This document shows positions 4,154-25,930 of a stretch of DNA of 62,658 nucleotides, piece after piece. The DNA lies in assembly GCA_934630485.1 (NCBI GenBank), contig CAKTWD010000001.1, forward strand, positions 1 through 62,658. The letters are read 5' to 3'. Source of the stretch: an uncultured Eggerthellaceae bacterium. GTDB lineage: Bacteria > Actinomycetota > Coriobacteriia > Coriobacteriales > Eggerthellaceae. The notes beneath the pieces were generated by a model. That model did not search any database. It was given only the letters and a program-made list of their open reading frames with translations, and was not told where the DNA came from. The position numbers and the translations under genes are program-made. The first letter of the stretch is position 1, and each line of letters opens with the position of its first letter.

Positions 4154-5494
4154 ATGCCCATTGGGGTAAGCTTGGTTCTTGTGGCGGCGTTCCTTTTGAT
4201 GAACGCCTTTTTCGTCATCGCCGAATTCGCAATGGTGCGCGTGCGTCCCTCGCAGGTTGAAATGGCCCTGCAGGAAGGTCGCAAGGGCGCGAAAGCGGCA
4301 AAGATCATCACCGACAACGTGAACGATTACCTTTCGGCTTGCCAGTTGGGCATTACCCTGGCTTCGCTTGCCTTGGGCTGGTTGGGCGAGCCCGCGTTCT
4401 CCAACCTTATCCGCCCGTTGCTGGCCCCCATTGGCATCCCCGAAACGGCCATTTCGGCCATTGCCGTCGCCATCGGCTACATCATCATGACCACGCTGCA
4501 TGTGGTGGTGGGCGAGCTTATCCCCAAGTCGTTCGCCATTTACTCGACCGAGTCGTACGCGCTGCACACGGCGCCCGTCCTTCATGTGTTCTACCGCATC
4601 ACGTTCCCCATCATGTGGCTGTTCAACCACCTGACCAGCGCCGTTGTGCGCTTGGCCGGTCACGATCCCGAGAACGAGCATGAGGTTTACACCGACGAGG
4701 AGATCAAACTGCTCATTGACGAGTCCACCGAAAGCGGTCTGATCGACCCCGAGGCTAACGAGATCGTGGACAACATCTTCGACATCGGCGACAAGGATGC
4801 TGAGGCCATTATGACCCCGCGCACCGACCTGATCTGCGTCGATATGGAAGACTCGCTGGAAGAGAATCTTCAAACCGTGCGCAACTACAAGTTCACGCGC
4901 TACCCTGTTTGCCAGGGAAGCAAAGACCGCATCATCGGTTTCGTGCACGTGAAAGACCTGTACACCGCGCCGAAGGGCGAGGACATGAAGGACCTGCGCA
5001 TACGCAGCATCCTTGCCGTGCCCGAGGGGATCCCCGTTGCCAAGCTGCTGCAAGCGCTGCAACGTCAGCACACGAAGATCGCCGTGGTCGTGGACGAGCA
5101 CGGCGGCACCAGCGGCATCGTCACCATGAGCGACATCATGGAGCAGATCGTTGGCCGCATGGACGACGAGTACTCGCATGGCGACGAGGGCCGCATCGTG
5201 GAGTTATCTGATGGCCGCAAGCTCATTGACGGTTCGATGCCTATCGACGAGGTAACCGAGCTTATTGGGTTCACGCCCGAGGAGGCCGACGAATGCGAGA
5301 CGGCGGGCGGCTTGCTGCTATCGCTGTTCGACCGCATTCCCGCCGAGGGCGACGTGATCAGCGTTGCCGAAATGCGTGATGGCGAGCCTGTTGAGGGCGG
5401 CGCATCGGCCCAGTTCACGGTTGTGGACATGGACAACCACCGCATCGACAAGATCGAGGTGCGCGCGATTCCTGCCCAGGATCCGCTGCTTTAA
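4154..5494 (+). CDS. CNNM/DUF21-CBS-CorC_HlyC family membrane protein (hemolysin-like / Mg-Co efflux-like)
   Basis: N-terminal 4-TM DUF21 region (FFVIAEFAMVRVR, ACQLGITLASL). CBS pair (IMTPRTD...VVDEHGGTSGIVTMSDIMEQIVG). C-terminal transporter-associated domain. RBS GGAGG. Confidence 0.88.
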   Translation: MPIGVSLVLVAAFLLMNAFFVIAEFAMVRVRPSQVEMALQEGRKGAKAAKIITDNVNDYLSACQLGITLASLALGWLGEPAFSNLIRPLLAPIGIPETAISAIAVAIGYIIMTTLHVVVGELIPKSFAIYSTESYALHTAPVLHVFYRITFPIMWLFNHLTSAVVRLAGHDPENEHEVYTDEEIKLLIDESTESGLIDPEANEIVDNIFDIGDKDAEAIMTPRTDLICVDMEDSLEENLQTVRNYKFTRYPVCQGSKDRIIGFVHVKDLYTAPKGEDMKDLRIRSILAVPEGIPVAKLLQALQRQHTKIAVVVDEHGGTSGIVTMSDIMEQIVGRMDDEYSHGDEGRIVELSDGRKLIDGSMPIDEVTELIGFTPEEADECETAGGLLLSLFDRIPAEGDVISVAEMRDGEPVEGGASAQFTVVDMDNHRIDKIEVRAIPAQDPLL

Positions 5495-6327
5495 TCTACT
5501 TTCACGCCGCAGAAGCGTTCGGCGTTCTTCCAGAGGATCTTTTCCAGGTCGTCGTCGCTGAAAACGCCAGGAGCTTGCTGTGTGATTTGCTGGTCGAATT
5601 CGACGGCCGGGTCCCACATGGGGAAGTCACTGCCGAACATGACGCGGTCGCATCCCCACAAATGGACGAGCTCGGCCAGGTGGCGCGTGCCGGTGAAGGC
5701 GACGGCGCTGGAGGTGTCCACGAACAGGCGATCCTCGAAAGCAAGATCGCGGGCATCATCATCGTGCATGATGTCGTAGCCGCGGTCGAAGATGGACCAG
5801 CCGCTGAAATGCGTGGCGTCCACCACCAGGTCGGGGAAGGCGCGCAGGATGCGCTTCAGGCGCTTGGGGCTGGAGTAGTCGTAGCGGTAGTCGCCGGTGT
5901 GGATGACCACGGGCGCGCGACCTGCGATTATCTCGTAGAAGTTCATCAGGCGTGGGTCGTCCATGTTCACAAGCTGCGTGTCGGGATGCAGCTTGAAACC
6001 GTGAAGCCCCAGTTCAAGGGCGCGTTCGACTTCTGCTTCCATATCTTTGAAATCGGGATGCATGGTACCGAAGGCGATGAACTCGGGGTGCTCTGCCTGC
6101 TTTTCGGCAAGGAATGAGTTGATGGTGGGGACGGAGTGCGCGGTAGTTGCCACTGAGTGAACGATGAAGTTCGTGATGGGTGAGCGCTTTGTGGCGGCGA
6201 TTAGGTCTTCGGCTGTGCCCTGACCTGCCATTGCTTGTTGGACTCCGTAAAACGCGCCGACTGCCTCCACCGCTCGCGAGGCGATTGCCTCGGGGTAGAT
6301 GTGTGCGTGCGCATCGATGACCGCCAT
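5491..6327 (-). CDS. Amidohydrolase family protein (amidohydrolase_2 type metal-dependent hydrolase)
   Basis: N-terminal MAVIDAHAHIYPE (HxH metal motif), GFKLHPD, VVIHTG, and FGSDFP near the C-terminus. Confidence 0.8.
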   Translation of the reverse strand: MAVIDAHAHIYPEAIASRAVEAVGAFYGVQQAMAGQGTAEDLIAATKRSPITNFIVHSVATTAHSVPTINSFLAEKQAEHPEFIAFGTMHPDFKDMEAEVERALELGLHGFKLHPDTQLVNMDDPRLMNFYEIIAGRAPVVIHTGDYRYDYSSPKRLKRILRAFPDLVVDATHFSGWSIFDRGYDIMHDDDARDLAFEDRLFVDTSSAVAFTGTRHLAELVHLWGCDRVMFGSDFPMWDPAVEFDQQITQQAPGVFSDDDLEKILWKNAERFCGVKVD

Positions 6328-6476
6328 GTCGTTCCTTCCGTTCTTTGGTTTGAATCAAGCTTCACTTTAACGCTTTTTAGTTTCGGGCGCGTGTCGCGTT
6401 GTTGGAGGGCAGTTGGCGAACGGGCGGCGCCGTGTTTGCGTGCCTGGCGCCCGACTGCGGGGTGGGCGGCCTCCCA

Positions 6477-6794
6477 TCAGCCGAATGCCTCCACCCAGAA
6501 GCGCTCGACCGGTGGTTTCCCTAAACTTGCGTCGTAGGTGCGACGTTCCAGGAACAGGTTCGTTTCGCGCGAGCCGATGCGCACGCGGTAGCGCGCGGTT
6601 GAGATGCCCCGGTAGGAAGGTCCGAAGCCGCTGCGCTCGATGATTTCGTCAACGCGGAACGAGCGTCCGTCGGGCCACATGATCACAATCGGGTCGAACC
6701 TTCCCTCGTCGGTTATGCGCATGAAAACGTCGACGTAGCGCTTGTGCGCCCGTCTTCGTGTTCCGCTTGAATCTGTCACCCAATCTGCCGGCAT
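6477..6794 (-). CDS. Small conserved hypothetical protein, divergent from the Y-family polymerase and sharing its LexA box
   Basis: 105-aa ORF with an ATG start. Motifs IVIMWPDGRSFRVDEIIE, ARYRVRIGSRETNLFLER, RFWVE. I recall similar small proteins but cannot name a family. Confidence 0.55.
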   Translation of the reverse strand: MPADWVTDSSGTRRRAHKRYVDVFMRITDEGRFDPIVIMWPDGRSFRVDEIIERSGFGPSYRGISTARYRVRIGSRETNLFLERRTYDASLGKPPVERFWVEAFG

Positions 6795-6805
6795 GTCTGT
6801 TATTA

Positions 6806-6821
6806 TCGAACATCGGTTCGA
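6806..6821. promoter_or_regulatory. LexA (SOS) box TCGAAC-ATCG-GTTCGA
   Basis: A perfect 6-N4-6 palindrome matching the Gram-positive/actinobacterial GAAC-N4-GTTC consensus. It lies 12 bp upstream of the ATG at 6794 (minus strand) and 44 bp upstream of the ATG at 6865 (plus strand). Confidence 0.75.
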
Positions 6822-6864
6822 ATTCTGGTAGCGAACAGACTGTGAAGATTGAAGGGGCGTGCGA

Positions 6865-8241
6865 ATGACGGATAGATTCTTGTCGGCAAAGTGCGAAACG
6901 CCGGCTAATGATGTCGCGTCGCGCTGCGACCTTTCGCAGATGCATCAATCTTCCAACAGAACTTACCTGTGCATTGATCTGAAATCCTTTTACGCTTCGG
7001 TGGAATGCATCGATCGCGGGCTCGACCCGTTTGCTGCCAACCTGGTTGTGGCAGATCCCGAACGCAGTGCCAACACCATTTGCCTTGCCATTACGCCGGC
7101 GTTGAAGGCGCGGGGCGTGAAGAACCGCTGTCGACTGCGCGACGTTCCCGATGGCATCGACTTCGTTTGTGCGGTGCCGCGCATGAAGCGCTATATGGAG
7201 GTATCGGGGCATGTCGTTAACGCGTATCGGCAATTCGTTTCGCCTGATGACATGCATGTTTACTCAATCGATGAGTCGTTCATCGACGCCACGCCGTACT
7301 TGAAGCTCTATGGTGTGGACGGGCGCACGTTCGCGAAGATGCTTATGCAGGCGGTATTCGATCAAACGGGCATCACGGCCACGGCGGGTATTGGCCCGAA
7401 CTTGCTTATGGCAAAGGTTGCGCTTGACGTGTGCGCCAAGCATGCGCTCGACGGCATTGGCCAGCTGGATGACGAGTCATGGCGTCGCGAGATCTGGTTT
7501 CATCGGCCCATCACCGACATATGGGGTATTGGGCCCGGCACCGCGCGGCGACTGGCGAAGCATGGCGTGTTCGACCTGGCGGGCGTGTGCTCGCTGCCGA
7601 AGAAATCCATTCAGAAGGAGTTCGGCAAGAACGGCCTGTTCCTGCTTGATCATGCGTGGGGGCAAGAGCCGTGCACCATTTCCCAGGCGAAGAATTACCG
7701 GCGACGCGACCATTCCATCACGAACGGGCAGGTTCTTATGCGCGATTACGGTTACGAAGAGGCGCAGACGCTTGTTCGCGAGATGGCGCTTTCGTCGTGC
7801 TTGGAGCTTACCGAGAAGGGCCTTGTTGCAACGAGCGTTGGGATTTGGGTGGGTTATTCCTCGTCGGGGGCAAGTCATCATGCGTGGGATCACGGGCGGG
7901 TGCCGGCTTTGGGCGCGGGTGGCAGCGCTAAGTTTCCGCGTCCCACCGACTCGGTGGCGCAAACGATGGACGCGCTGTTGGATCTGTATTTGAAACACGT
8001 TGACCCGCGGATGGCGATTCGACGGGTGAACATCGCGCTTGGCGGTTTGTTCGATAAAAGCGACGTGCAGCCCACGCTCTTTGACGATACCGAGGGCGAA
8101 AGCAAGGAAGAAGCCGTTGCGCAGGCGATGGTTGCCGTGCGGGCACGGTTCGGTAGGAATTCGATGCTAACGGCCACCAGCCTTCTTCCCGAAGCGAACG
8201 GTCGCGAAAGGAACATGCAGGTAGGAGGTCATCGGGCATGA
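6865..8241 (+). CDS. Y-family DNA polymerase (UmuC/UvrX/ImpB-like translesion polymerase)
   Basis: Motifs YLCIDLKSFYASVECIDRGLDP, YSIDESFIDAT (catalytic D-E), ATAGIGPNLLMAKVALD, IWGIGPGTARRL. The start is ambiguous: ATG 6865 follows GAAGGGG, and ATG 6940 is an alternative. Confidence 0.88.
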   Translation: MTDRFLSAKCETPANDVASRCDLSQMHQSSNRTYLCIDLKSFYASVECIDRGLDPFAANLVVADPERSANTICLAITPALKARGVKNRCRLRDVPDGIDFVCAVPRMKRYMEVSGHVVNAYRQFVSPDDMHVYSIDESFIDATPYLKLYGVDGRTFAKMLMQAVFDQTGITATAGIGPNLLMAKVALDVCAKHALDGIGQLDDESWRREIWFHRPITDIWGIGPGTARRLAKHGVFDLAGVCSLPKKSIQKEFGKNGLFLLDHAWGQEPCTISQAKNYRRRDHSITNGQVLMRDYGYEEAQTLVREMALSSCLELTEKGLVATSVGIWVGYSSSGASHHAWDHGRVPALGAGGSAKFPRPTDSVAQTMDALLDLYLKHVDPRMAIRRVNIALGGLFDKSDVQPTLFDDTEGESKEEAVAQAMVAVRARFGRNSMLTATSLLPEANGRERNMQVGGHRA

Positions 8242-8625: not shown

Positions 8626-8702
8626 TGCGGGGTGGAGCAGTCTGGTAGCTCGCCGGGCTCATAACCCGGAGGCCGTAGGTTCAAATCCTGCCCCCGCGAC
8701 CA
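8626..8702 (+). tRNA. Initiator tRNA-Met (anticodon CAT)
   Basis: 77 nt, aligning almost base for base with the E. coli tRNA-fMet layout (TGCGGGGTGGAGCAG...GGGCTCATAACCC...GGTTCAAATCC...CCCCGCGACCA). The three G-C pairs closing the anticodon stem are an initiator hallmark. The 1:72 pair is non-Watson-Crick (T:G). CCA is encoded. Confidence 0.93.
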
Positions 8703-9150: not shown

Positions 9151-10593
9151 TTACCTTTTAAGGTCGTAGTACTGTGACGGATCCTTGGGATTGGATCCGT
9201 GCCATTCGAGGAGACCCTTTTCCACCAGCTCCTTGAGCGTGGGCCTGGAGACCTTCACGCTGCGTCCAAGGTGATCCGACAGCTCACCCACGGTGATTCG
9301 TCCTCTGGCGTACACGTATTGCATGGCCGCAAGCTCATACTCGTTGAGCGACTCGAAGACCGCCTGCCCTATGCTGCTCGAAAGGGCATCCTGGCGTCTC
9401 AGCATGCGCGACGTGATGCTGTTCTCGAGAGTCAACTGCACTGATGCATCGTTGGGTTCCTCAAAGATGGGGTCGTTCAGGAAATAGTTTGCCATTTCGT
9501 CGTAGATGCGCTGAACACCTTCGTTGAGCTCACGCACCCAACCGAATTCCGTCAACGTCCGTGCGATTACGGGGTTGCGAGCCCATCGAGTGTTTCGCAT
9601 GTTCTCCAGCGTCACTACGTTGGGCAGTTTGCCTGGGCTCGTGATCTCCATGCGGTCGTCGTACATCATCACGCGGATATGGTCGCCACTGTGGGCGTAG
9701 TTGCGGTGCGTCACGGCGTTTACCAGGCCCTCGAACCAGGCGAACTCTGGGTATTCAGGAACGATCTTGAACTTGCCGTCGTCCCCCAGATACTGGAACT
9801 CGCGCAGCTGCTCGGAGATCATGGCCTTGGCGCCTTCGATGACCTTAGGCAGTGGGCCGTCGAACGTACGTTCCTTCACGATGTTGAGCCTGCGGCCAGT
9901 TTCCATCTTGCCTCCATCGAAGCGGATGACACGCACCCTCGCGCAGGGGATAAACTGGGTGGGGCTCTTGGCGAAGAGAAGGACGCCGGCGTTGGTGAGA
10001 TGCCCGTCCACGAGCATGCTTCGGCTGCGGAGAACCTGCTCGTCCGAGACGTTTGTGCCGAGCTCCTCCTTGTAATGGGCCATGACTTCGGGGTCGATGT
10101 CTTCTATCGTGGAGCGGCCCGCCACTTCATCCTCGAAGCGCCGCTGGTTCTTGTCGTATTCGAGCGCGGTGATCTGGTCGTGATCCAGCTCGACGCTCTT
10201 GTCTCCCTGACGAAGGAAAACAGCCCCATCGCTGCGCCTCGCGATGACGTGGTCGGTCGATGCGCTGATGTCCAGGACGAGAATGAGGTCGTTTTCCCCA
10301 TGGGAGTTTACGACGGGAATCTCGGCGAGCCTCACCATGGGTACAGGCTCGCAGCAGACGAGAGGTGCCTGCTTGAAAGCTTCGATGTCATGAGCCCCGT
10401 TGCGCTTGAACCCGGTAATCTCGCCGCCATCCTCAATGCCGATGACCAGCTTTCCTCCCGAGGCGTTCGCAAAGGCGCAGATATGCCGAGAAATCTCCTT
10501 CGCGTCTTTGCGGGCGCTCTTGCGGTCGAAGTATTGGTTCTCCTTCGCGGTGGAGAAAATGTCGGGGTCGCTCTTGCCGATTGGATGCTGCAT
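9151..10593 (-). CDS. AlbA_2 (Schlafen-like DNA-binding) / HATPase_c_4 / C-terminal winged-HTH protein (often mis-annotated as RecG-like)
   Basis: N-terminal ENQYFDRKSARKDAKEISRHICAFANASGGKLVIGIEDGGEITGF. Central FEGLVNAVTHRNYAHSGDHIRVMMYDDRMEITSPGKLP. C-terminal wHTH-like ITVGELSDHLGRSVKVSRPTLKELVEKGLLE. Confidence 0.8.
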   Translation of the reverse strand: MQHPIGKSDPDIFSTAKENQYFDRKSARKDAKEISRHICAFANASGGKLVIGIEDGGEITGFKRNGAHDIEAFKQAPLVCCEPVPMVRLAEIPVVNSHGENDLILVLDISASTDHVIARRSDGAVFLRQGDKSVELDHDQITALEYDKNQRRFEDEVAGRSTIEDIDPEVMAHYKEELGTNVSDEQVLRSRSMLVDGHLTNAGVLLFAKSPTQFIPCARVRVIRFDGGKMETGRRLNIVKERTFDGPLPKVIEGAKAMISEQLREFQYLGDDGKFKIVPEYPEFAWFEGLVNAVTHRNYAHSGDHIRVMMYDDRMEITSPGKLPNVVTLENMRNTRWARNPVIARTLTEFGWVRELNEGVQRIYDEMANYFLNDPIFEEPNDASVQLTLENSITSRMLRRQDALSSSIGQAVFESLNEYELAAMQYVYARGRITVGELSDHLGRSVKVSRPTLKELVEKGLLEWHGSNPKDPSQYYDLKR

Positions 10594-11552: not shown

Positions 11553-12824
11553 CTACACGAGATCTTGCAGTAGGAATTTCCATGCGGGTTTAACCTCGAT
11601 GCGTGTATCGCCCTCTATGATTTCCCCTTCTTCCTCTTTTGTCGCGATAAGCAATCGACGAATAGATTCGTCGATACGGGCTAGTTTTACTAAGTTGCCT
11701 ATCTCCCTGGGCTTGGCGCTTTCGGAAAGCGAATAGGCCACCTGCACTGCAAGGCCTTGTTCGGGCACATAAAAATCTACGTCAATGCCGTTTTTTGGCG
11801 ATTTCAGGTAATGAAGCCCCTCGCCAAAGGCATCATGCATTGCTACGGCCACCTCGTTTTCGAGCAAGGCTGGCTCCCTTCCGATCAGGAAGAGATTGAG
11901 CAATCCGTTGTCGCTGAAATAGCGCTTCGGATTTCCCTCGCGCTCTACAAACTTTGCAACGGCGTTTTTTACTTCAAACAGCAGGTAAGCCTCGCGAGCC
12001 ATGGTAAGGTAGTCTAACAGCGTGCCCTTGCTGACGTTGTAGCCCAATCCGCGCAACATGCCATGCAGCGCCGTGGCGGAGGTTTCGTTGCAGACGGTTT
12101 CGGCAATTTTCTTCATGAGCACGCGCAAAGCATCGGGGTTTCGCACGCCATTGCACGCCACCATGTCTCCGAACAAGACCTCTTGGTACACGCTTTCCGT
12201 ATATTCGCGAGCAGAGATATAGCGAAGCGATTCGGGAAAGCCGCCATTTTGATAAAACGTATCGAATGCGCTTGCAATGGCTCCTTTGGCCTTTGTCGCG
12301 TATAGCGCCTCGGCATCATGGGGCACACCGACAGCGTCGAGATACTCGTCAAAACGGTAAGGGGTTACATGCTTGACGAAATAGCGCCCACCAAGAGTGG
12401 TAGCTATCTGGCTGCTAAGCATGTTTGCATTGCTGCCGGTTATCCACACGCGTTCGCCAGCGTCGGCCAAGCGTCGCGCAAACTTTTCCCAGCCATCTAC
12501 GTTCTGTATTTCATCAAAGAAGAAGAAGCCCGAATGTCTGCTGAGCTCGCCTTGCGCTGACAGGATGTCATTGAAATCGTCAACGCGGAATTCTGCCAGG
12601 CGCTCGTCCTCAAAATTGATGTAGATGATCCGGTTCCATTCCACGCCCGATTCCACCAGGTCTCGAGCTATTTTGTAGAGCAGGGTGGACTTGCCGGCGC
12701 GGCGCAGACCGGTGATTACGTAGTTAGCCTGAGGGTCGAGCGAGTAGCGACGAGGCACGATGCGCGCATTGCGAATGATTTCATGTTGATCGAAGATGAC
12801 GCTTTTCAGCACTTCATGATTCAT
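11553..12824 (-). CDS. AAA_14 / DUF4143 family ATPase
   Basis: Walker A ITGLRRAGKSTLL and Walker B-like FFFFDEIQNV, with a C-terminal DUF4143-like region. ATG 12824 (MNHEVLKS...) puts Walker A about 40 aa from the start, as is usual. The longer ORF-track form (to 12998) would translate through two palindromes. Confidence 0.85.
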   Translation of the reverse strand: MNHEVLKSVIFDQHEIIRNARIVPRRYSLDPQANYVITGLRRAGKSTLLYKIARDLVESGVEWNRIIYINFEDERLAEFRVDDFNDILSAQGELSRHSGFFFFDEIQNVDGWEKFARRLADAGERVWITGSNANMLSSQIATTLGGRYFVKHVTPYRFDEYLDAVGVPHDAEALYATKAKGAIASAFDTFYQNGGFPESLRYISAREYTESVYQEVLFGDMVACNGVRNPDALRVLMKKIAETVCNETSATALHGMLRGLGYNVSKGTLLDYLTMAREAYLLFEVKNAVAKFVEREGNPKRYFSDNGLLNLFLIGREPALLENEVAVAMHDAFGEGLHYLKSPKNGIDVDFYVPEQGLAVQVAYSLSESAKPREIGNLVKLARIDESIRRLLIATKEEEGEIIEGDTRIEVKPAWKFLLQDLV

Positions 12825-12832
12825 GGGAATAC

Positions 12833-12860
12833 CAATCTGTTCGATGCGCTGAACAGATTG
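12833..12860. promoter_or_regulatory. Palindrome 1: CAATCTGTTC-N8-GAACAGATTG (candidate operator)
   Basis: Perfect 10-bp arms, 9 bp upstream of the ATPase ATG (12824). Confidence 0.5.
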
Positions 12861-12900
12861 TATGGCTTTCCGTACAGTATATCGAACGGAATAATAGCAA

Positions 12901-12924
12901 ATCTGTTCAATATACTGAACAGAT
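12901..12924. promoter_or_regulatory. Palindrome 2: ATCTGTTC-N8-GAACAGAT (candidate operator)
   Basis: Perfect 8-bp arms with the same core as palindrome 1. The two centres are 66 bp apart. Confidence 0.5.
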
Positions 12925-13072
12925 GGCGTGATTTGGAAGGAAGATCGCTTATCGTCCGCGTGTTGTTGGTGCTGAGCTGGCCTAGTTTGCGTAGTCAACC
13001 GCGTTGCCAGATCCCATGCATAACGAACAACTGAAACTCGCGCATCTTTTGGCCCGATTCATTTGGTTAGCG

Positions 13073-14884
13073 CTACAAGCTCTCGTAGTAGCCACGTATT
13101 TTTCTAGCCATAAGGATACGGCGCTGAGCAAGGAAGTCCTCGTAATCGGCCGCACCCATATCGAATATTCCTTCCGGAATGCAATTCGACTCAAGGTTGG
13201 TCAAGAGACCTGCTTTATCAGAAATGTCGCCGAAGTAATTTTTTCCTGCTGCGATGGCTTCTCTCGCTTGTGTGAAGTACTCGCCAGGACGCATTTCGCC
13301 AATCGCTATGTTGATGCGCTTTTCAAGGTAGGTATAGTTCGCGATTTGGTTATAGAGGCGCTGCGGCGCGTCGATCGTCTTCCTCAGATACGCCTTCGGA
13401 AAGATATGGTGGATATCGCCAACGTTGCCGATGACGTCGGCCACCTTGAACCCGTTTGTGAACAGGGTGTTGTCAGCCGAACGAACTTGTGACGCTATGT
13501 AGACCATCCATGCTCCAGTTCGCACTGAAGTCGTAACGAGATTCTGCGGCAAGGTGACTTTCCAGAAATTGTCGGAAAGCTGCGATGCGGCGATCTCGTT
13601 GTAGAACGGGATGAATCCCTGTTCGGATATTCGACCCATGTCGCGGTCCATGACGGATTCCGACGAGCCGGAATAGCGCCCGGTGAGGATGGACATCACG
13701 TACCAGCGCTGCACCCAGCGCTTAAGATCGGTCGAAGGCACGGAGGCATCTTCTCGTAGGGTGAGATACAGATTGTAGGCAAAATTGACAGCGCCCTTGG
13801 ATCCGATGATCGATGAAGATACGAACCCTGCCGAGCGAAGAGCGGCGGTAAAGTCCTGGAAATTGCTTTTACGCATGAACTTAACCACGCCGTCATGCAG
13901 CTTGGTGAAAGACTCGTCTGCTATCTCGCCTTTGAAGTCACGGGCCTCAAAATCGCGGCCAGAAAGAAGAGACACCAGGTCGGCGAGCTTGCCGCGGCCG
14001 AACATGTGCATGAACGCGACGCGCAGGACGTCATTATAGTCAGGGTCGTAAATGTCGTCCTTGTCGTCCTTGAGCCATTCGCACTTATCTGCGAACTCGG
14101 ATTCCATGAACTCGGCGTCGTTTTGGCTGATAATGGCCCAGAATTCGGGCTTGACGGCCAAATGGCAGTAATAGTCGATGGCCTTGCGCAGCATGTTGCC
14201 GCCGTGAACCTCATCGGCAGCGATTTTAGACATTGCGAAGTCGGCTTGGGATAAAACGGCGCCCTTGGAATTGATGCGGATGAAGATGTCCGTAACCTCG
14301 TCTATGCTGCATTCAGCAGCTACGACGATGCAGCCGAGCTGACGCGTTGCTATCGCCTTAAGATCGGTGATTCTTAAGTTCACGACCTTGGGATCGCAGC
14401 CGGGGTTCGCCTCTATGTATTCGTTGACGAAAGTCCAGGAGTCGAAATCAGGGGCGAAGAACTCTGCAATGTCCGATATCCATCGCGGATCTTTATCAAT
14501 CACCGGCGTAAGCACGGCAAAAGGAGTGTCCTCGCCTTCGTAAAGAGGGTTGAAGGCGATCTTTACGCGCTTCGACTCGTAATCTTCATTAAGCACGGCT
14601 TTGCCCGCGAGCGCGGCGGTGAGAGCCGTCACGCGCTGCTGACCGTCGATAAGCACCGTCTTGCCCTCTGCAACGCCGCCGCCCTTGATCTTCACGTCGG
14701 GGTTCTTCCATGTGATCAGATAGCCGGTCGGGTATCCATGGTAAAGAGAGTCGACCAAATCGCGAACTTTGGTGCTGTCCCACACGAAGGGTCGCTGGAT
14801 TTCGGGAATTGCGATGTCGCCGGACTCTATAAGCCCAAGGATGCTTTGCACTGAGTAAGTGGTGACGCTGTAGCAATCTTTCAT
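13073..14884 (-). CDS. DUF262 (ParB-like NTPase) + DUF1524 (His-Me finger nuclease) protein, GmrSD/BrxU/SspE-like
   Basis: N-terminal IPEIQRPFVWDSTKVRDLVDSLYHGYPTGYL and VLIDGQQRVTAL (DGQQR motif). C-terminal GDIHHIFPKAYL...NQIANYTYLEKRINIAIG. Confidence 0.88.
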   Translation of the reverse strand: MKDCYSVTTYSVQSILGLIESGDIAIPEIQRPFVWDSTKVRDLVDSLYHGYPTGYLITWKNPDVKIKGGGVAEGKTVLIDGQQRVTALTAALAGKAVLNEDYESKRVKIAFNPLYEGEDTPFAVLTPVIDKDPRWISDIAEFFAPDFDSWTFVNEYIEANPGCDPKVVNLRITDLKAIATRQLGCIVVAAECSIDEVTDIFIRINSKGAVLSQADFAMSKIAADEVHGGNMLRKAIDYYCHLAVKPEFWAIISQNDAEFMESEFADKCEWLKDDKDDIYDPDYNDVLRVAFMHMFGRGKLADLVSLLSGRDFEARDFKGEIADESFTKLHDGVVKFMRKSNFQDFTAALRSAGFVSSSIIGSKGAVNFAYNLYLTLREDASVPSTDLKRWVQRWYVMSILTGRYSGSSESVMDRDMGRISEQGFIPFYNEIAASQLSDNFWKVTLPQNLVTTSVRTGAWMVYIASQVRSADNTLFTNGFKVADVIGNVGDIHHIFPKAYLRKTIDAPQRLYNQIANYTYLEKRINIAIGEMRPGEYFTQAREAIAAGKNYFGDISDKAGLLTNLESNCIPEGIFDMGAADYEDFLAQRRILMARKIRGYYESL

Positions 14885-20974: not shown

Positions 20975-21031
20975 GTTGAAAGACTCGACTTTAATTTGCG
21001 CGGCCGCGCTTGGAGCATTACGGGGGCAGCG

Positions 21032-22753
21032 ATGCATGATCTGAATAAAGTTCTGTTTTACAAAACGTCGTTCGACGTCCAGCTGGTTGCGGGCGACGAT
21101 TTGCTGTGGCCGATCATCTTCGAGATCAAAAACTGGATGACATCCAAATGGAACGGCCCCGCGTGCTACGGCGACGCCTCCTGTGACGGCCCGCAGTACG
21201 ACGGCGCTCCTAGTGATGCCACGCCCGTGCTTGCCACCGACAACCAGGAATGGTCGGCACTTAAGCGAAAAGGCCAGATCAGATCGACGGATGATGACGC
21301 CTCGGTGGTTATCGAATCAGCCACGTTCTACGATAGCCTTTTCGGCAACAAATGGGCCTGCGCCATCTCCGAGACTATAAAGGTTGAGGGCTGCGCCTTT
21401 CGCGAATGGCGTACGGAAATCGGCTTTATCTGGCGCGAGCAAGATCGCGGCACGTTGTCGCTGATTCTTTCCTACAGCGATCAGCCGGGTTTCCTGGGCC
21501 CGCTGCAACCCACTCCTTCCGAAACCATCCCAGGCATTGTTCTTAGGCTGTCGGACAACAATCGCATCCGCTGCTCGGTTTCGGGCAGGAGCAATTTCAT
21601 GGAGCCCACCCGCCTTGAGGTTGGCGACTTCGTGGGTTTCTGGTCGTTCGTCTCCGACAAGAACCGCAACACGCCCGTCGTGTTCGTTAGCCCTGCAGTC
21701 GACGATGGGGCGGCAACGCTTTTGATTGACCCGCAGGCCGTTTCTGCGGCTTTGGGCCCCTCGGCGGTGGTCTTTTTCAGCGAAAGCCCCGCCTTCATGG
21801 ACGAGATGAATGCCTGCCTTCCAAGAGCTGAGCTGCGCTGCACGAACGGCGCGGTTCGCGTGTACGAGCCCAAGAAGAGTCTTGCCGAGCACTGGAAACA
21901 TCGCTTTTTCTCGCCCGCTGCAATTGAAGAGCTGGGCGGCGCCGAGGCTTTGATCCTGCTACTAAGACGGGCGCTGGCTCAGGATGTTCACTTCTACGAA
22001 GACACGGTACGGCTTGATGACGTGCACGATCTTGTTCGCCGCAGCACGTTCGAGAAGCGGCTGCATCAACGTGTCGATGATGCTCAGGACGAAACGGATC
22101 AGGTTCGACTGGAGCTTGACGAGTTCCTTGACGATCACGAGCGAACGCTTAACGAGAGGGATCGCTTGGACGAGGAGAACAAGAAGCTGCGTCAGCAACT
22201 GGATGCGGCGGAGTCGAAAGCGTCAAGCCTTCAGCAGGCGTTTGAGGGTTCGGGCATGGTCGAGGCGCCGGTTGCGGGCTTGCCGCTGTATCCCAAGTCG
22301 CGAAAAGACATCGTGAATATGTTCTTGGAGGCGTATCCGAGCAGGTTCGACCTGACCGAGCGCGCGTGGCGTTCGCTGGACAATTGCGAGAGCAGCCCCG
22401 AGGTTTTGTGGAACGCGCTGTACTATCTGTGCACGCTTTTGCATTCGCTTTGGCACAGCGGGTCGGGCGTCGATTTGGAGCGAAGCTTTAACGATTCCGC
22501 CAGCGGGTTTGAGTACAAGCGCGGCGAAGGGCGCAACTCGCGTGCGGACAAGGCTGTGATGGCGTCTCGCTACGATGTGTACAACGGCCGCGAGATTTTC
22601 GCGGAGCCCCACATCAGCAAGGGAAATAGCCGAGGTAAATCGAAGGAGAACAGCATCAGGATTTATTTAGCCTTGGATGAGCCGTCGGGCATGATCATCC
22701 TTTCCAGCATCGGTGAGCATTTGGACAACCATTCCACGCGCAACTTTCATTAG
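21032..22753 (+). CDS. Orphan 573-aa soluble protein: unknown N-domain + coiled coil + C-terminal domain with a RelE/ParE-like strand motif
   Basis: Long ORF with host-like codon usage. ATG 21032 follows GGGGG. No Walker, TM or nuclease motif was recognised. Coiled coil RLHQRVDDAQDETDQVRLELDEFLDDHERTLNERDRLDEENKKLRQQLDAAESKASSLQQ. C-terminus ...ENSIRIYLALDEPSGMIILSSIGEHLDNH. Confidence 0.75.
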   Translation: MHDLNKVLFYKTSFDVQLVAGDDLLWPIIFEIKNWMTSKWNGPACYGDASCDGPQYDGAPSDATPVLATDNQEWSALKRKGQIRSTDDDASVVIESATFYDSLFGNKWACAISETIKVEGCAFREWRTEIGFIWREQDRGTLSLILSYSDQPGFLGPLQPTPSETIPGIVLRLSDNNRIRCSVSGRSNFMEPTRLEVGDFVGFWSFVSDKNRNTPVVFVSPAVDDGAATLLIDPQAVSAALGPSAVVFFSESPAFMDEMNACLPRAELRCTNGAVRVYEPKKSLAEHWKHRFFSPAAIEELGGAEALILLLRRALAQDVHFYEDTVRLDDVHDLVRRSTFEKRLHQRVDDAQDETDQVRLELDEFLDDHERTLNERDRLDEENKKLRQQLDAAESKASSLQQAFEGSGMVEAPVAGLPLYPKSRKDIVNMFLEAYPSRFDLTERAWRSLDNCESSPEVLWNALYYLCTLLHSLWHSGSGVDLERSFNDSASGFEYKRGEGRNSRADKAVMASRYDVYNGREIFAEPHISKGNSRGKSKENSIRIYLALDEPSGMIILSSIGEHLDNHSTRNFH

Positions 22754-23983: not shown

Positions 23984-24229
23984 AAGGCGCTCCTTGTTCG
24001 TAGGTCGGTTTCCGTGGATCTACATCGCGCCCGCCCGATTCGCCGGGTTCGCGCATGCGAACTTTCATGCGAGCCAGGAAATAGCGGAAGCTAATTTTCT
24101 CATGATCGACCCGACGCAGGCAATGGCCTGCTGTCCAATTCTTGGGGGGAGGCTGGGTTGGTTCGGGATGGGGGCTGGTAATAGCTGGCGATTGTCCCGC
24201 TGTTTGGGGCAGTTGGCTTGCTGACGATT

Positions 24230-24275
24230 TTGAGTTACCCTACAATTACCATATAATATCGAATTGTAGGGTAAC
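24230..24275 (+). promoter_or_regulatory. Promoter TTGAGT-16-TATAAT enclosed by a perfect 14-bp inverted repeat (operator)
   Basis: GTTACCCTACAATT (24234-24247) and AATTGTAGGGTAAC (24262-24275) flank TATAAT (24252-24257). This lies 20 nt upstream of the ATG at 24295. Confidence 0.55.
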
Positions 24276-24294
24276 CAAGATGGGAGGACGCCTT

Positions 24295-24606
24295 ATGTCG
24301 GTGTTCGAGGAGGTGCTTGAGGAGGAGTTCGGAAGATCCGTTCGCCTTAGTGACCATATGCAAGCTGAGCTTGAGCTGCTGCCCAAGGGAAGTGTCCGTT
24401 CGCGAAAGATAAAAGGTCGCGAGTACTATTATCTGAATTATCGCGAGGGCGATAAAGTGAAGTCTGACTATGTCCCCGCATCTGACATTGATGATGTTCG
24501 TCGGAAAATTGAACGTCGGAAAGAGTTGAAGGCTGCTTTAAAAGAGCAAGAACGCACACGCCAGCAGATCGAGCGAGCTTTGGGGAGGGTCCCCGATGTT
24601 GTCTGA
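24295..24606 (+). CDS. Small protein partner of the GSU2403-type nucleotidyltransferase (putative antitoxin/regulator)
   Basis: 103 aa from ATG 24295 (RBS GGAGG 7 nt upstream). Motif KIKGREYYYLNYREGDKVKSDYV followed by a charged helix RRKIERRKELKAALKEQERTRQQIE. It overlaps the next gene by 11 nt. Confidence 0.7.
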   Translation: MSVFEEVLEEEFGRSVRLSDHMQAELELLPKGSVRSRKIKGREYYYLNYREGDKVKSDYVPASDIDDVRRKIERRKELKAALKEQERTRQQIERALGRVPDVV

Positions 24607-25243
24607 ACAGCAGCATGCGTTTGCCCGCGTTCTTGATCTTATTGAAGAGGCTGGCTGCATGTCTTTTGTTGTTCTGATTGGCTCGTGGGCGGAGTATGTA
24701 TACAAAGAAGCTGGGATTTTGCCCGGCTTTGACCCTAATATCAGGACACTGGATGTCGACTTTCTTATACGTAATTTGAGGCGCCCTGTTCCAGCTGCGA
24801 GTTTGGCGGTGCTTGCAAAAGAGAAAGGCTTCTTTGTTGAGTCGGATCGTCTGAATGGGTCGACGAAGATCCTTGACGCGTCGGGTCTTGAAGTCGAGTT
24901 TCTAATTCGAAAAATGGGCGCTGGCGCGGAGGTCGCGCTTAAAACGAATGTCGGGGTGACTGCGCAAACGCTTCGGCATTTGGAAATTCTCTCGACGAAT
25001 CTTCTTGAGACAATTTGTTTGGGGCATGTGCTTCGGGTTCCTGCGCCTGAGGCATACGTGATTCACAAGATGGTGATAAACGACGAAAGAGGCCCGAAGG
25101 CCGAGAAGGACGCAGTGGCCGTTATGGCCTTAGCTTCTTATCTTGTCGAAGAAAAAGCGATTGCTATATTCGAATCACTTACCAAAAAGGAACAGTTGCG
25201 CGTCAGGGCCTTTATCGCGAAGTACGGCATCGAGAATCAGTAG
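24596..25243 (+). CDS. GSU2403-family nucleotidyltransferase-fold protein (AbiEii/MNT-like putative toxin)
   Basis: NTase signature VVLIGSWAEYVY...TLDVDFLI (hG[GS]...DxD), then EVEFL and APEAYVIHKMV. Confidence 0.82.
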   Translation: MLSEQQHAFARVLDLIEEAGCMSFVVLIGSWAEYVYKEAGILPGFDPNIRTLDVDFLIRNLRRPVPAASLAVLAKEKGFFVESDRLNGSTKILDASGLEVEFLIRKMGAGAEVALKTNVGVTAQTLRHLEILSTNLLETICLGHVLRVPAPEAYVIHKMVINDERGPKAEKDAVAVMALASYLVEEKAIAIFESLTKKEQLRVRAFIAKYGIENQ

Positions 25244-25300
25244 GCTAGGCTCGCGATGCACGGAGCAGACATGAGGTTTAATGCGTGGGCTTGCTCTGGG

Positions 25301-25930
25301 TTAGATCAGCGAAATCAGTAGTTCGTGGATGCGAGTGTCGGCGTCCAACTCGGGGTGGAACGCGACGCCGATTTGGTTTCCGCTGCGTACGGCAACGATG
25401 CGGCCGTCAACCTGGGCAAGGACCTGCGCATCGCCGCGGGCTTCTTTGATGAACGGCGCACGGATGAACGTCATGGGGATGTCCGCCGGCTCCGTTTCGT
25501 CAGGCAAACCCGCGCAGGGTGCGGTAGTGCGGAAACTTCCAAGCTGCCTGCCGTAAGCGTTGCGCTGAACGGTGACGGGAAGGGTTCCAAACGCGCCAGC
25601 TGCGGTTGAGCCCGCGGCGACGGGGCCGTTGGGATCGCCCGCTGCGGGGACGCCTTCCTCCACGGTTTCGGCCAGCAGGATAAGACCCGCGCAGGTGCCA
25701 AGCGCAGGCATGCCTTCGGCAATGCGCTGACGCAGGGGTTCGAGCATTCCCAGTTCGCGGAGCATTTTCGCCTGAGCGGTGCTTTCGCCGCCGGGAAGCA
25801 CTAGCGCGTCGAAAGGTTTTTCCAGATCGGCCGCCTGGCGAAGCTCGATGCACTCGCAGCCAAGCTTGCGCAGCATGCGCTCGTGCTCGATAAATGCTCC
25901 CTGAACAGCCAAAACGGCGATAGTCTTCAT
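25301..25930 (-). CDS. pdxT: Pyridoxal 5'-phosphate synthase glutaminase subunit
   Basis: Motifs IAVLAVQGAFIEH, LVLPGGESTA, LGTCAGLILL, AFHPEL. Confidence 0.92.
   Translation of the reverse strand: MKTIAVLAVQGAFIEHERMLRKLGCECIELRQAADLEKPFDALVLPGGESTAQAKMLRELGMLEPLRQRIAEGMPALGTCAGLILLAETVEEGVPAAGDPNGPVAAGSTAAGAFGTLPVTVQRNAYGRQLGSFRTTAPCAGLPDETEPADIPMTFIRAPFIKEARGDAQVLAQVDGRIVAVRSGNQIGVAFHPELDADTRIHELLISLI

Follow-up and report, generated by a model that had tools for sequence, protein, structure and literature searches.

The stretch of DNA considered here (the window, 62,658 nucleotides) comprises positions 1-62,658 of contig CAKTWD010000001.1 (assembly GCA_934630485.1), which belongs to an 87%-complete, 1.65-Mb Eggerthellaceae-type metagenome-assembled genome (MAG); all coordinates below are window positions. 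A low-G+C cassette of two genes, a candidate self-repressed toxin-antitoxin (TA) module, lies at 24200-25250 between a gene for an LPXTG surface protein and pdxT, as delimited by the composition profile and the neighbouring open reading frames (ORFs). The first gene (24295-24606, plus strand) starts with an ATG placed 7 nt behind the Shine-Dalgarno sequence GGAGG (24283-24287, plus strand), read directly from the sequence, and translates into a 103-amino acid protein that contains KIKGREYYYLNYREGDKVKSDYV and makes up a DUF6788-like domain, called here the YYY domain. The second gene (24596-25243, plus strand) encodes a 215-amino acid nucleotidyltransferase (NTase) of family PF12281 (NTP_transf_8/GSU2403-family) with the DNA polymerase beta (pol-beta) fold, as judged from Pfam and AlphaFold2, and its ORF carries LIGS...DVDFL. 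The two genes overlap by 11 nt. The first-pass annotation, made from the sequence alone, had described both genes and their overlap with the same lengths, and they are found where it placed them. G+C content falls from about 0.62 in the flanks to about 0.49 within exactly 24200-25250, which marks the cassette as foreign to its high-G+C genome; most likely it was acquired horizontally.

The Shine-Dalgarno element of the NTase gene, GGGGAGGG (24583-24590, plus strand), is located inside the 3' end of the small gene. Comparison of the junctions of 24 paired loci reveals a GGGAAGGG-type motif together with the ATG...TGA overlap in most of them. An RNA hairpin covering the NTase ribosome-binding site (24580-24596) was considered and discarded; the fold is no better than that of shuffled sequences (z -0.79) and is not conserved across the 24 paired loci. 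A 154-amino acid frame starting with TTG was likewise rejected for the small gene: its additional N-terminus is translated operator (see below), and since MSV(L/F)E is the start common to all homologues, the longer frame is not a real gene.

A sigma-70-like promoter (24230-24257, plus strand) precedes the small gene. It consists of TTGAGT (24230-24235), a 16-nt spacer and TATAAT (24252-24257), with 10 of 12 matches in a consensus scan. The promoter is bracketed by a perfect inverted repeat, made up of the left arm GTTACCCTACAATT (24234-24247; conserved core TTACCCTACA, 24235-24244) and the right arm AATTGTAGGGTAAC (24262-24275; conserved core TGTAGGGTAA, 24265-24274). The arms are complementary at 14 of 14 positions and separated by 14 nt. 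The -35 element overlaps the left arm, the -10 element sits between the arms, and the right arm probably spans the transcription start. We estimate that chance alone would produce a perfect inverted repeat of 14 nt, its loop no longer than 30 nt, about 2e-4 times per 1.5 kb. A role as an RNA element or terminator was rejected on geometry: because the -10 element lies between the arms, the right arm is at most what is transcribed, and the repeat is a DNA operator rather than an RNA hairpin.

Conservation of this operator was surveyed in 80 fetched loci, the majority from Collinsella, each coding for a relative of the small protein; the examined upstream regions are those of the window and of 79 loci. 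The core TTACCCTACA-N20/21-TGTAGGGTAA is present in 80 of the 80 upstream regions, with no mismatch over the 20 arm positions in 67 of them and a gap of 20 nt in 78. In 14 loci with unrelated surroundings the arms hold 1.96 bits per position, against 0.78 for the spacer and 0.25-0.3 for the flanks; spacer and flanks vary between loci, unlike the core. The only half-site copies in the 1.65-Mb assembly are the two arms at the cassette. The operator is retained at loci devoid of the NTase. Distant pairs, found in Lachnospiraceae and Clostridia MAGs, carry other palindromes of equal geometry (TAACCAACAA-N18, TACAACCAACAT-N18 and TAACCTACA-N20, the last occurring twice). The comparison of loci thus supports the assignment of the inverted repeat as a strongly conserved promoter operator. 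The geometry of TA autoregulation, which the first-pass annotation had recognised in the TTGAGT-16-TATAAT promoter and its 14-bp bracket, is maintained across loci.

The YYY domain is the sole product common to split, orphan and fused loci (see below), and the palindrome differs from lineage to lineage. Since each lineage has its own palindrome and only this product is shared, the YYY domain is the likely autorepressor, and the small protein is very probably a repressor of its own promoter, as far as comparative sequence data can tell. Comparative genomics suggests that the YYY protein would bind, probably as a dimer, to the half-sites TTACCCTACA and TGTAGGGTAA. Their spacing of 30 bp centre to centre amounts to approximately three helical turns, which puts them on the same face of the DNA. 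Because the half-sites overlap the -35 element and the transcription start, binding would shut the promoter of the operon.

The NTase scores 71.4 bits on PF12281 (cut-off 26.3), and its residues 9-187 align with profile positions 3-205 of 218; a genome-level search with the same family agrees with the single-protein result, and the GSU2403-type assignment made at first pass is thereby confirmed. Fused members of the family reach 170-204 bits, indicating that the NTase represents a divergent subfamily. Its AlphaFold2 model (mean predicted local distance difference test score, pLDDT, 93.3) was compared with known structures by Foldseek. The matches include 5uvd, a fungal NTase-like protein (E 7.7e-6), ANT(2'')-Ia (E 5.8e-5 to 4e-4), MenT1 (8an4; E 1.3e-4, TM-score 0.50-0.55), LnuA (E 3.6e-4) and MenT3 (8xhr; E 3.7e-3), as well as CCA-adding enzymes. 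The model would place the protein among the minimal pol-beta NTases. Searches of PDB sequences with the single proteins and with two profiles detect no relatives of either the NTase or the small protein, and the sole PHROGs match is a weak one, to a PHROG of unassigned function.

The pol-beta signature of the NTase is complete, with hG[GS], DxD and a third acidic residue; among 59 homologues, G29-S30, D53-V-D55 and E99/E101 are invariant or nearly so. Thirteen residues (G29, T51, D53, D55, A123, Q124, P149, H157, K158, R165, K168, K171 and D172) are common to all three architectures in which PF12281 NTases occur (see below). The set T51-x-D53-x-D55, K158 and K171-D172 resembles T39/D41/K137/D152 of MenT1 in order and spacing (PMC10435456), and the same pattern resembles S78/D80/K189/D211 of MenT3 and T65/D67/D69 of AbiEii (PMC11375011; bioRxiv 10.64898/2026.01.19.700257; PMC3985639). 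On the other hand, PF08843 (DUF1814), the AbiEii family, gives no match to the NTase at E<=1. It appears that the NTase keeps the catalytic logic of the MenT/AbiEii group, yet lies outside DUF1814 by sequence. The likeness to AbiEii/MNT/MenT-type toxins proposed at first pass therefore stands for the catalytic positions. A full-text literature search turned up no publication dealing with PF12281, with GSU2403 as an NTase or with DUF6788, consistent with the earlier remark that the GSU2403 family has no experimentally defined activity.

The small protein scores 21.3 bits against PF20586 (DUF6788), whose gathering cut-off is 27.2, with residues 44-92 alone aligning, and a genome-level search with the Pfam PF20586 model does not pick it up; its homologues bear a precomputed PF20586.4 label. 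A CGKxxCxC knuckle is present in the two canonical DUF6788 members examined and absent from the small protein, which is DUF6788-like and not a canonical member. It has 195 close homologues. The partner family as a whole is large: a profile of the small proteins gathers 1541 clusters (50% identity), the majority being stand-alone proteins ~100 amino acids in length. The AlphaFold2 model (mean pLDDT 95.6) consists of a long helix (residues 3-28), three strands forming a beta-meander (33-39, 42-51 and 54-60) and a second long helix (62-96). The invariant residues R35, R37, Y44, Y46, R50 and Y59 lie on the meander. The nearest topology is that of prefoldin beta (TM-score ~0.5). In the Pfam scan the small protein matches no AbiEi family, and neither protein matches HEPN; the modelled order of helix, three beta-strands and helix shows no HEPN or nuclease features.

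Both canonical DUF6788 proteins (L088 266-610, plus strand; L089 1611-1955, minus strand) have 114 amino acids and the CGKxxCxC knuckle, and their genes lie directly upstream of an ORF of 437-463 amino acids, which by eye looks like a DDE transposase. From this, the DUF6788 fold may serve mobile elements more generally as a DNA-binding accessory.

The two genes are tightly linked. Among 401 genomes of the order the small gene is found directly upstream of 8 of 8 full-length NTase genes, and the same holds for 3 of 3 distant pairs, which come from MAGs of Lachnospiraceae and Clostridia and whose neighbouring genes are unrelated. The co-conservation on which the first-pass annotation had staked its proposal thus holds for every full-length NTase found. 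The 80 small-gene loci comprise 38 with a full NTase, 19 with a truncated one and 23 with none, so that a full-length NTase is missing from 42 of them. The full-length NTases keep the same overlap with the small gene, and the 19 truncated ones retain the first 42-64 codons only. Three of the truncated genes are cut by a contig end and one of the 23 NTase-less loci is at a contig end; in 38 of the 76 loci not so cut, the small gene is alone and intact. It measures 103 codons in 75 of the 80 loci. The ratio of non-synonymous to synonymous substitution rates (dN/dS) is 0.16 in paired and orphan loci alike, indicating that the orphan small gene is under purifying selection.

Decay of the NTase gene follows the same direction in the order-wide scan. 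Frameshifted or truncated NTases still have the small gene, and 5 genomes have a small gene and no NTase match. A 64-codon remnant that lacks both ends is the one NTase fragment not accompanied by a small gene. Stages of decay are seen at G538:C37:7564-8457, G385:C1:59939-60792 and L106 1589-1780; they include an NTase broken into two frames, a small gene interrupted by an in-frame TGA and, in L106, a remnant with neither small gene nor operator. This asymmetric loss, in which the full-length NTase is never found alone and the small gene often is, is the pattern that a TA pair predicts.

Three arrangements are seen among PF12281 NTases: the YYY domain is fused to the enzyme, is encoded by a separate gene as in the window, or is replaced by an AbiEi_2 (PF09952)-like protein encoded upstream. 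Identity between the three groups is 26-30%. A class sample of 301 genomes contains PF12281 matches in 63, about 42 of the matches scoring 170-204 bits; these strongest matches of the Coriobacteriia are solo genes of about 350 codons (L002 2866-3909, minus strand; L007 2755-3810, plus strand; L090-L097; L099) with almost no conserved neighbours. The first ~100 residues of their products contain the motif of the small protein, reading ...GSFVTKTVKGQEYYYFQ...GGxKRQTYVG..., and are followed by the NTase domain. Alignment of the small family with these fused N-termini by hhalign gives a probability of 93.4% (E 2.5e-7; residues 30-74 against 31-78). All 11 of the fused genes examined have a palindrome of their own, GTTATACGCA-N14-TGCGTATAAC, over a TTGAGT -35 element. 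The cassette shares with them the homologous YYY domain in front of the NTase domain and the self-palindrome over TTGAGT; it differs in that theirs are single-polypeptide solo genes with the half-site GTTATACGCA and a spacing of N14. To judge from these sequences, the YYY/NTase pair is a two-gene version of a protein that is widespread as a single fused gene.

In the third arrangement, found in other Coriobacteriia, an AbiEi_2 (PF09952)-like protein of 362-375 amino acids overlaps an NTase of 271-278 amino acids (L003 1764-3664, L004 2820-4765, L005 1709-3669). These pairs resemble the cassette in NTase family, invariant residues and the overlapping upstream partner. In the cassette, however, the YYY protein replaces the 362-375-amino acid partner, and the sister NTases are about 55 residues longer at the C-terminus and 26-30% identical. 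The AbiEi_2-like/NTase pair has neither a PADLOC nor an NCBIfam match, and the fused form is matched by neither database.

The YYY domain and its upstream palindromes are also met farther afield. A fused proteobacterial GSU2403-family gene on a plasmid of Ruegeria sp. AD91A (L109 2250-3408) has several TGTTCAACA/TGTTGAACA sites in the ~90 bp before its start, indicating that the theme of the self-operator reaches beyond Gram-positive bacteria. A YYY domain is found as well at the N-terminus of AAA_14/DUF4143-like ATPases of 600-670 amino acids with a nuclease-like EIKHS-type motif (L100 552-2552, minus strand; L102 288-2180, minus strand; L103 1784-3601, plus strand), of which L103 matches the PADLOC candidate PDC-S01. 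Palindromes such as GTTATACCC-N15-GGGTATAAC precede L100 and L103, and none of at least 7 nt was found upstream of L102. Altogether, 5 of 7 YYY-domain genes checked have an upstream palindrome, and the arms share a TAAC/GTTA-type element.

With a probability of about 0.6, we read the cassette as a self-repressed module of TA or abortive-infection type. Such a module would work as follows. The YYY protein would hold the promoter closed, and the location of the NTase Shine-Dalgarno sequence inside the small gene would couple translation such that the NTase is made only along with its partner. By analogy with MenT and AbiEii, the effector would be an active pol-beta-fold NTase that adds nucleotides to the 3' ends of tRNA or other RNA, arresting translation when released or over-expressed. 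We consider the odds slightly better than even that the NTase is toxic or growth-inhibiting, as predicted. Because the small protein and the NTase are one polypeptide in many genomes, the two probably contact each other. Neutralisation might then proceed, speculatively, by occlusion and/or by induced autophosphorylation of Thr51, as with MenA1-MenT1 and AbiEi-AbiEii.

A wider version of this proposal, which we put forward tentatively and consider doubtful, assumes that the YYY domain, with its three-stranded sheet held between the two long helices, is an unrecognised class of DNA-binding domain that serves defence effectors as a portable repressor acting on its own operator, and that as a partner in cis or in trans it would also switch off the NTase via Thr51 autophosphorylation. 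The effectors would then be the PF12281 NTases and the AAA_14/DUF4143 ATPase-nucleases, with related DUF6788 proteins adjoining transposase genes.

Several points weigh against the TA reading. ANT(2'')-Ia, LnuA and 5uvd are as close to the NTase as MenT1 or closer by Foldseek. The equivalence to MenT is read from residue order and spacing, and from an hhalign match of T-x-D-x-D to AbiEii, rather than from structural superposition; that alignment, against 19 AbiEii proteins of related genomes, has a probability of 18% (E 1.3e-3) and covers the N-terminal motif region alone. NCBIfam and PADLOC-DB v2 have no match for either protein. A structure search of the small-protein model against the PDB and the viral model library BFVD gives no match at E<=1e-3, and its putative DNA binding is deduced from operator co-variation. 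Loss of the downstream gene only could stem in part from a recombination hotspot on the 3' side. Finally, fused genes that stand alone are widespread, which shows that a labile antitoxin encoded separately is dispensable; such forms do not fit a classical TA pair. If toxic, the fused proteins must be self-inhibited in cis, a situation for which fused toxin-antitoxins such as CapRel would provide a precedent.

Systems of the proposed kind, in which an NTase toxin goes with an autoregulating partner, are already known; the NTase family, the fold of the partner and the fused solo form are so far undescribed. AbiEi/AbiEii of Streptococcus agalactiae and Lactococcus is an abortive-infection TA system first assigned to type IV and proposed in 2026 to be type VII. 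The promoter of the AbiE operon lies within an inverted repeat of 11 bp, N27 and 11 bp (PMC3985639). Like AbiE, the cassette is bicistronic, with the regulator or antitoxin gene first and the pol-beta-fold NTase second, and it sits at mobile or defence loci. The promoter is flanked by an inverted repeat in both cases, an architecture that is observed here and for which repression is predicted, and both enzymes have T-x-D-x-D (T65/D67/D69 in AbiEii) and a C-terminal K and D motif. Unlike AbiE, the cassette encodes a PF12281 rather than a DUF1814/PF08843 NTase, the partner lacks the winged helix-turn-helix and the C-terminal domain of AbiEi, and partner and NTase are fused in many genomes.

The other obvious comparison is with MenAT of Mycobacterium tuberculosis. 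MenT and AbiEii enzymes extend the 3' ends of tRNA and are autophosphorylated at Thr/Ser on induction by the antitoxin, and the Thr of MenT1 is such a site (PMC11375011). MenA1, a peptide of 7.4 kDa, is helical, and transcriptional autoregulation is reported to be lacking in MenAT1 (PMC11375011). The NTase resembles MenT1 (of the pair MenA1/MenT1, Rv0078B/Rv0078A), MenT3 and MenT4 in being compact (~190-215 amino acids), with a small partner that is not of the winged-helix type encoded upstream. MenT1 is its best toxin match by structure (8an4), with T51/D53/K158/D172 paralleling T39/D41/K137/D152. Sequence homology to MenAT is not detectable, and the partner, unlike that of MenAT1, presumably represses through an operator that is very conserved.

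The alternative that survives best, though we think it unlikely, holds that the small protein is a mere transcriptional repressor of a stress- or phage-induced NTase and neither binds nor neutralises it, the fusions just adding a DNA-binding domain to the enzyme. CapW and BrxR are dedicated repressors of this sort in other defence systems. The fusion of the YYY domain to unrelated AAA_14/DUF4143-like effectors, with palindromes upstream of 2 of 3 full-length ones, the company that canonical DUF6788 proteins keep with transposases, and the orphan small genes that retain both the operator and purifying selection are all in line with a pure repressor. However, the coupled 11-nt overlap in most paired loci is typical of stoichiometric partners, the domain also occurs fused to the NTase itself with domain order unchanged, and MenA1 and AbiEi show that small partners can bind NTase toxins (PMC11375011). 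As this model and the TA model predict near-identical genomic patterns, the present data do not separate them.

It is less likely still that the NTase nucleotidylates a small molecule, for instance an antibiotic (like ANT(2'')-Ia and LnuA) or a metabolite, with the small protein as repressor of a resistance or detoxification unit. The minimal NTase fold with a helical C-terminal domain is shared with these two enzymes, their Foldseek scores are comparable with that of MenT1, and the solo fused genes are stably retained in many genomes. Against this stand the invariant T-x-D-x-D, K and KD set, which fits MenT/AbiEii (PMC10435456) and supplies C-terminal invariant residues of MenT type that set the NTase apart from ANT(2'')-Ia and LnuA, and the pairing of the sister subfamily with AbiEi_2-like proteins of antitoxin type. 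The cassette also has an overlapping partner, an operator and a defence island around it, instead of the context of a resistance element; members of the family hardly occur on plasmids and do not occur in phages; and it is often the NTase that is truncated and the regulator that is kept. A reversed polarity, in which the NTase would be an antitoxin acting by nucleotidylation on a toxic small protein, has a model in MNT-HEPN systems, where a minimal NTase is the antitoxin, and is nevertheless highly improbable: the partner here is not a HEPN-domain RNase and has no nuclease features, its gene persists alone, intact and under purifying selection (38 of 76 loci; 5 genomes order-wide), and its upstream position and the logic of the operator suit an antitoxin or regulator.

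NTase toxins such as AbiEii and MenT are abundant phage-defence and persistence factors and, to our knowledge, all belong to DUF1814. If the TA reading of the cassette is true, PF12281 constitutes a second family of NTase toxins, with the same catalytic logic and a different partner. If the reading of Thr51 is also true, type VII control extends to this second family and to single-polypeptide fused toxin-antitoxins. The co-existence of split, fused and AbiEi_2-partnered forms provides a natural test of how NTase toxins are controlled, including whether Thr autophosphorylation is general. The partner, having no relative in the PDB and operators that co-vary with lineage, may offer a route to a new DNA-recognition fold. 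The hosts are common Coriobacteriia of the human gut (Collinsella and Eggerthellaceae), whose defence repertoires are poorly charted.

The cassette is part of a defence-type island between tRNA-Met (8626-8702) and pdxT (25301-25930). The island also holds genes for an AlbA_2/HATPase_c_4 protein (9151-10593), an AAA_14/DUF4143 protein that matches PDC-S01 with 268 bits (11553-12998) and a GmrSD_N protein resembling HEC-05 (13073-14884), as well as a HEC-07-like gene (20996-22753). The LPXTG-type surface-protein gene directly upstream of the cassette has the motif LPATG. A canonical AbiEii (PF08843) match is present elsewhere in the same genome (G000:C160:1461-2030, minus strand), and in a sample of the family 30 of 61 genomes have AbiEii. 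G420, a genome of the same genus, has kept pdxT and lacks the cassette and most of the island; its left flank is not conserved, so that the borders of the insertion are not set to the base. A direct near-repeat matching at 10 of 11 nt, GTTGGCTTGCT / GTGGGCTTGCT, is found just outside the ends of the cassette (24212-24222 and 25285-25295); it is probably due to chance, the alternative being an insertion scar.

The occurrence of the cassette in unrelated contexts in Coriobacteriia and Clostridia indicates that the two genes form a mobile unit, at least as far as gene neighbourhoods tell. A plasmid collection yielded two distant proteobacterial matches, for the NTase only, and a phage collection no match to the NTase family; the cassette does not appear to be typically plasmid- or phage-borne. 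Two loci with other taxonomic labels, L056 (Roseburia sp. CAG:303) and L026 (Treponemataceae), carry loci of the Collinsella type. The order-level sample around the L056 genome consists of the same contigs as the Coriobacteriales sample, and both labels probably reflect mis-binning.

In Collinsella, the breakpoints of the truncated NTases recur at codons 42-64. The region downstream of the small gene, behind a truncated or missing NTase, is a variable hotspot there (L010, L019, L024, L025, L060 and L084; about 4300-8000). Its changing cargo, identified by eye in the ORF translations, includes a C5-methyltransferase gene accompanied by a restriction-like one, AbiEi together with AbiEii, a DUF262 protein along with an IS200-type TnpA, and a helicase/PLD-like protein of about 960 amino acids.

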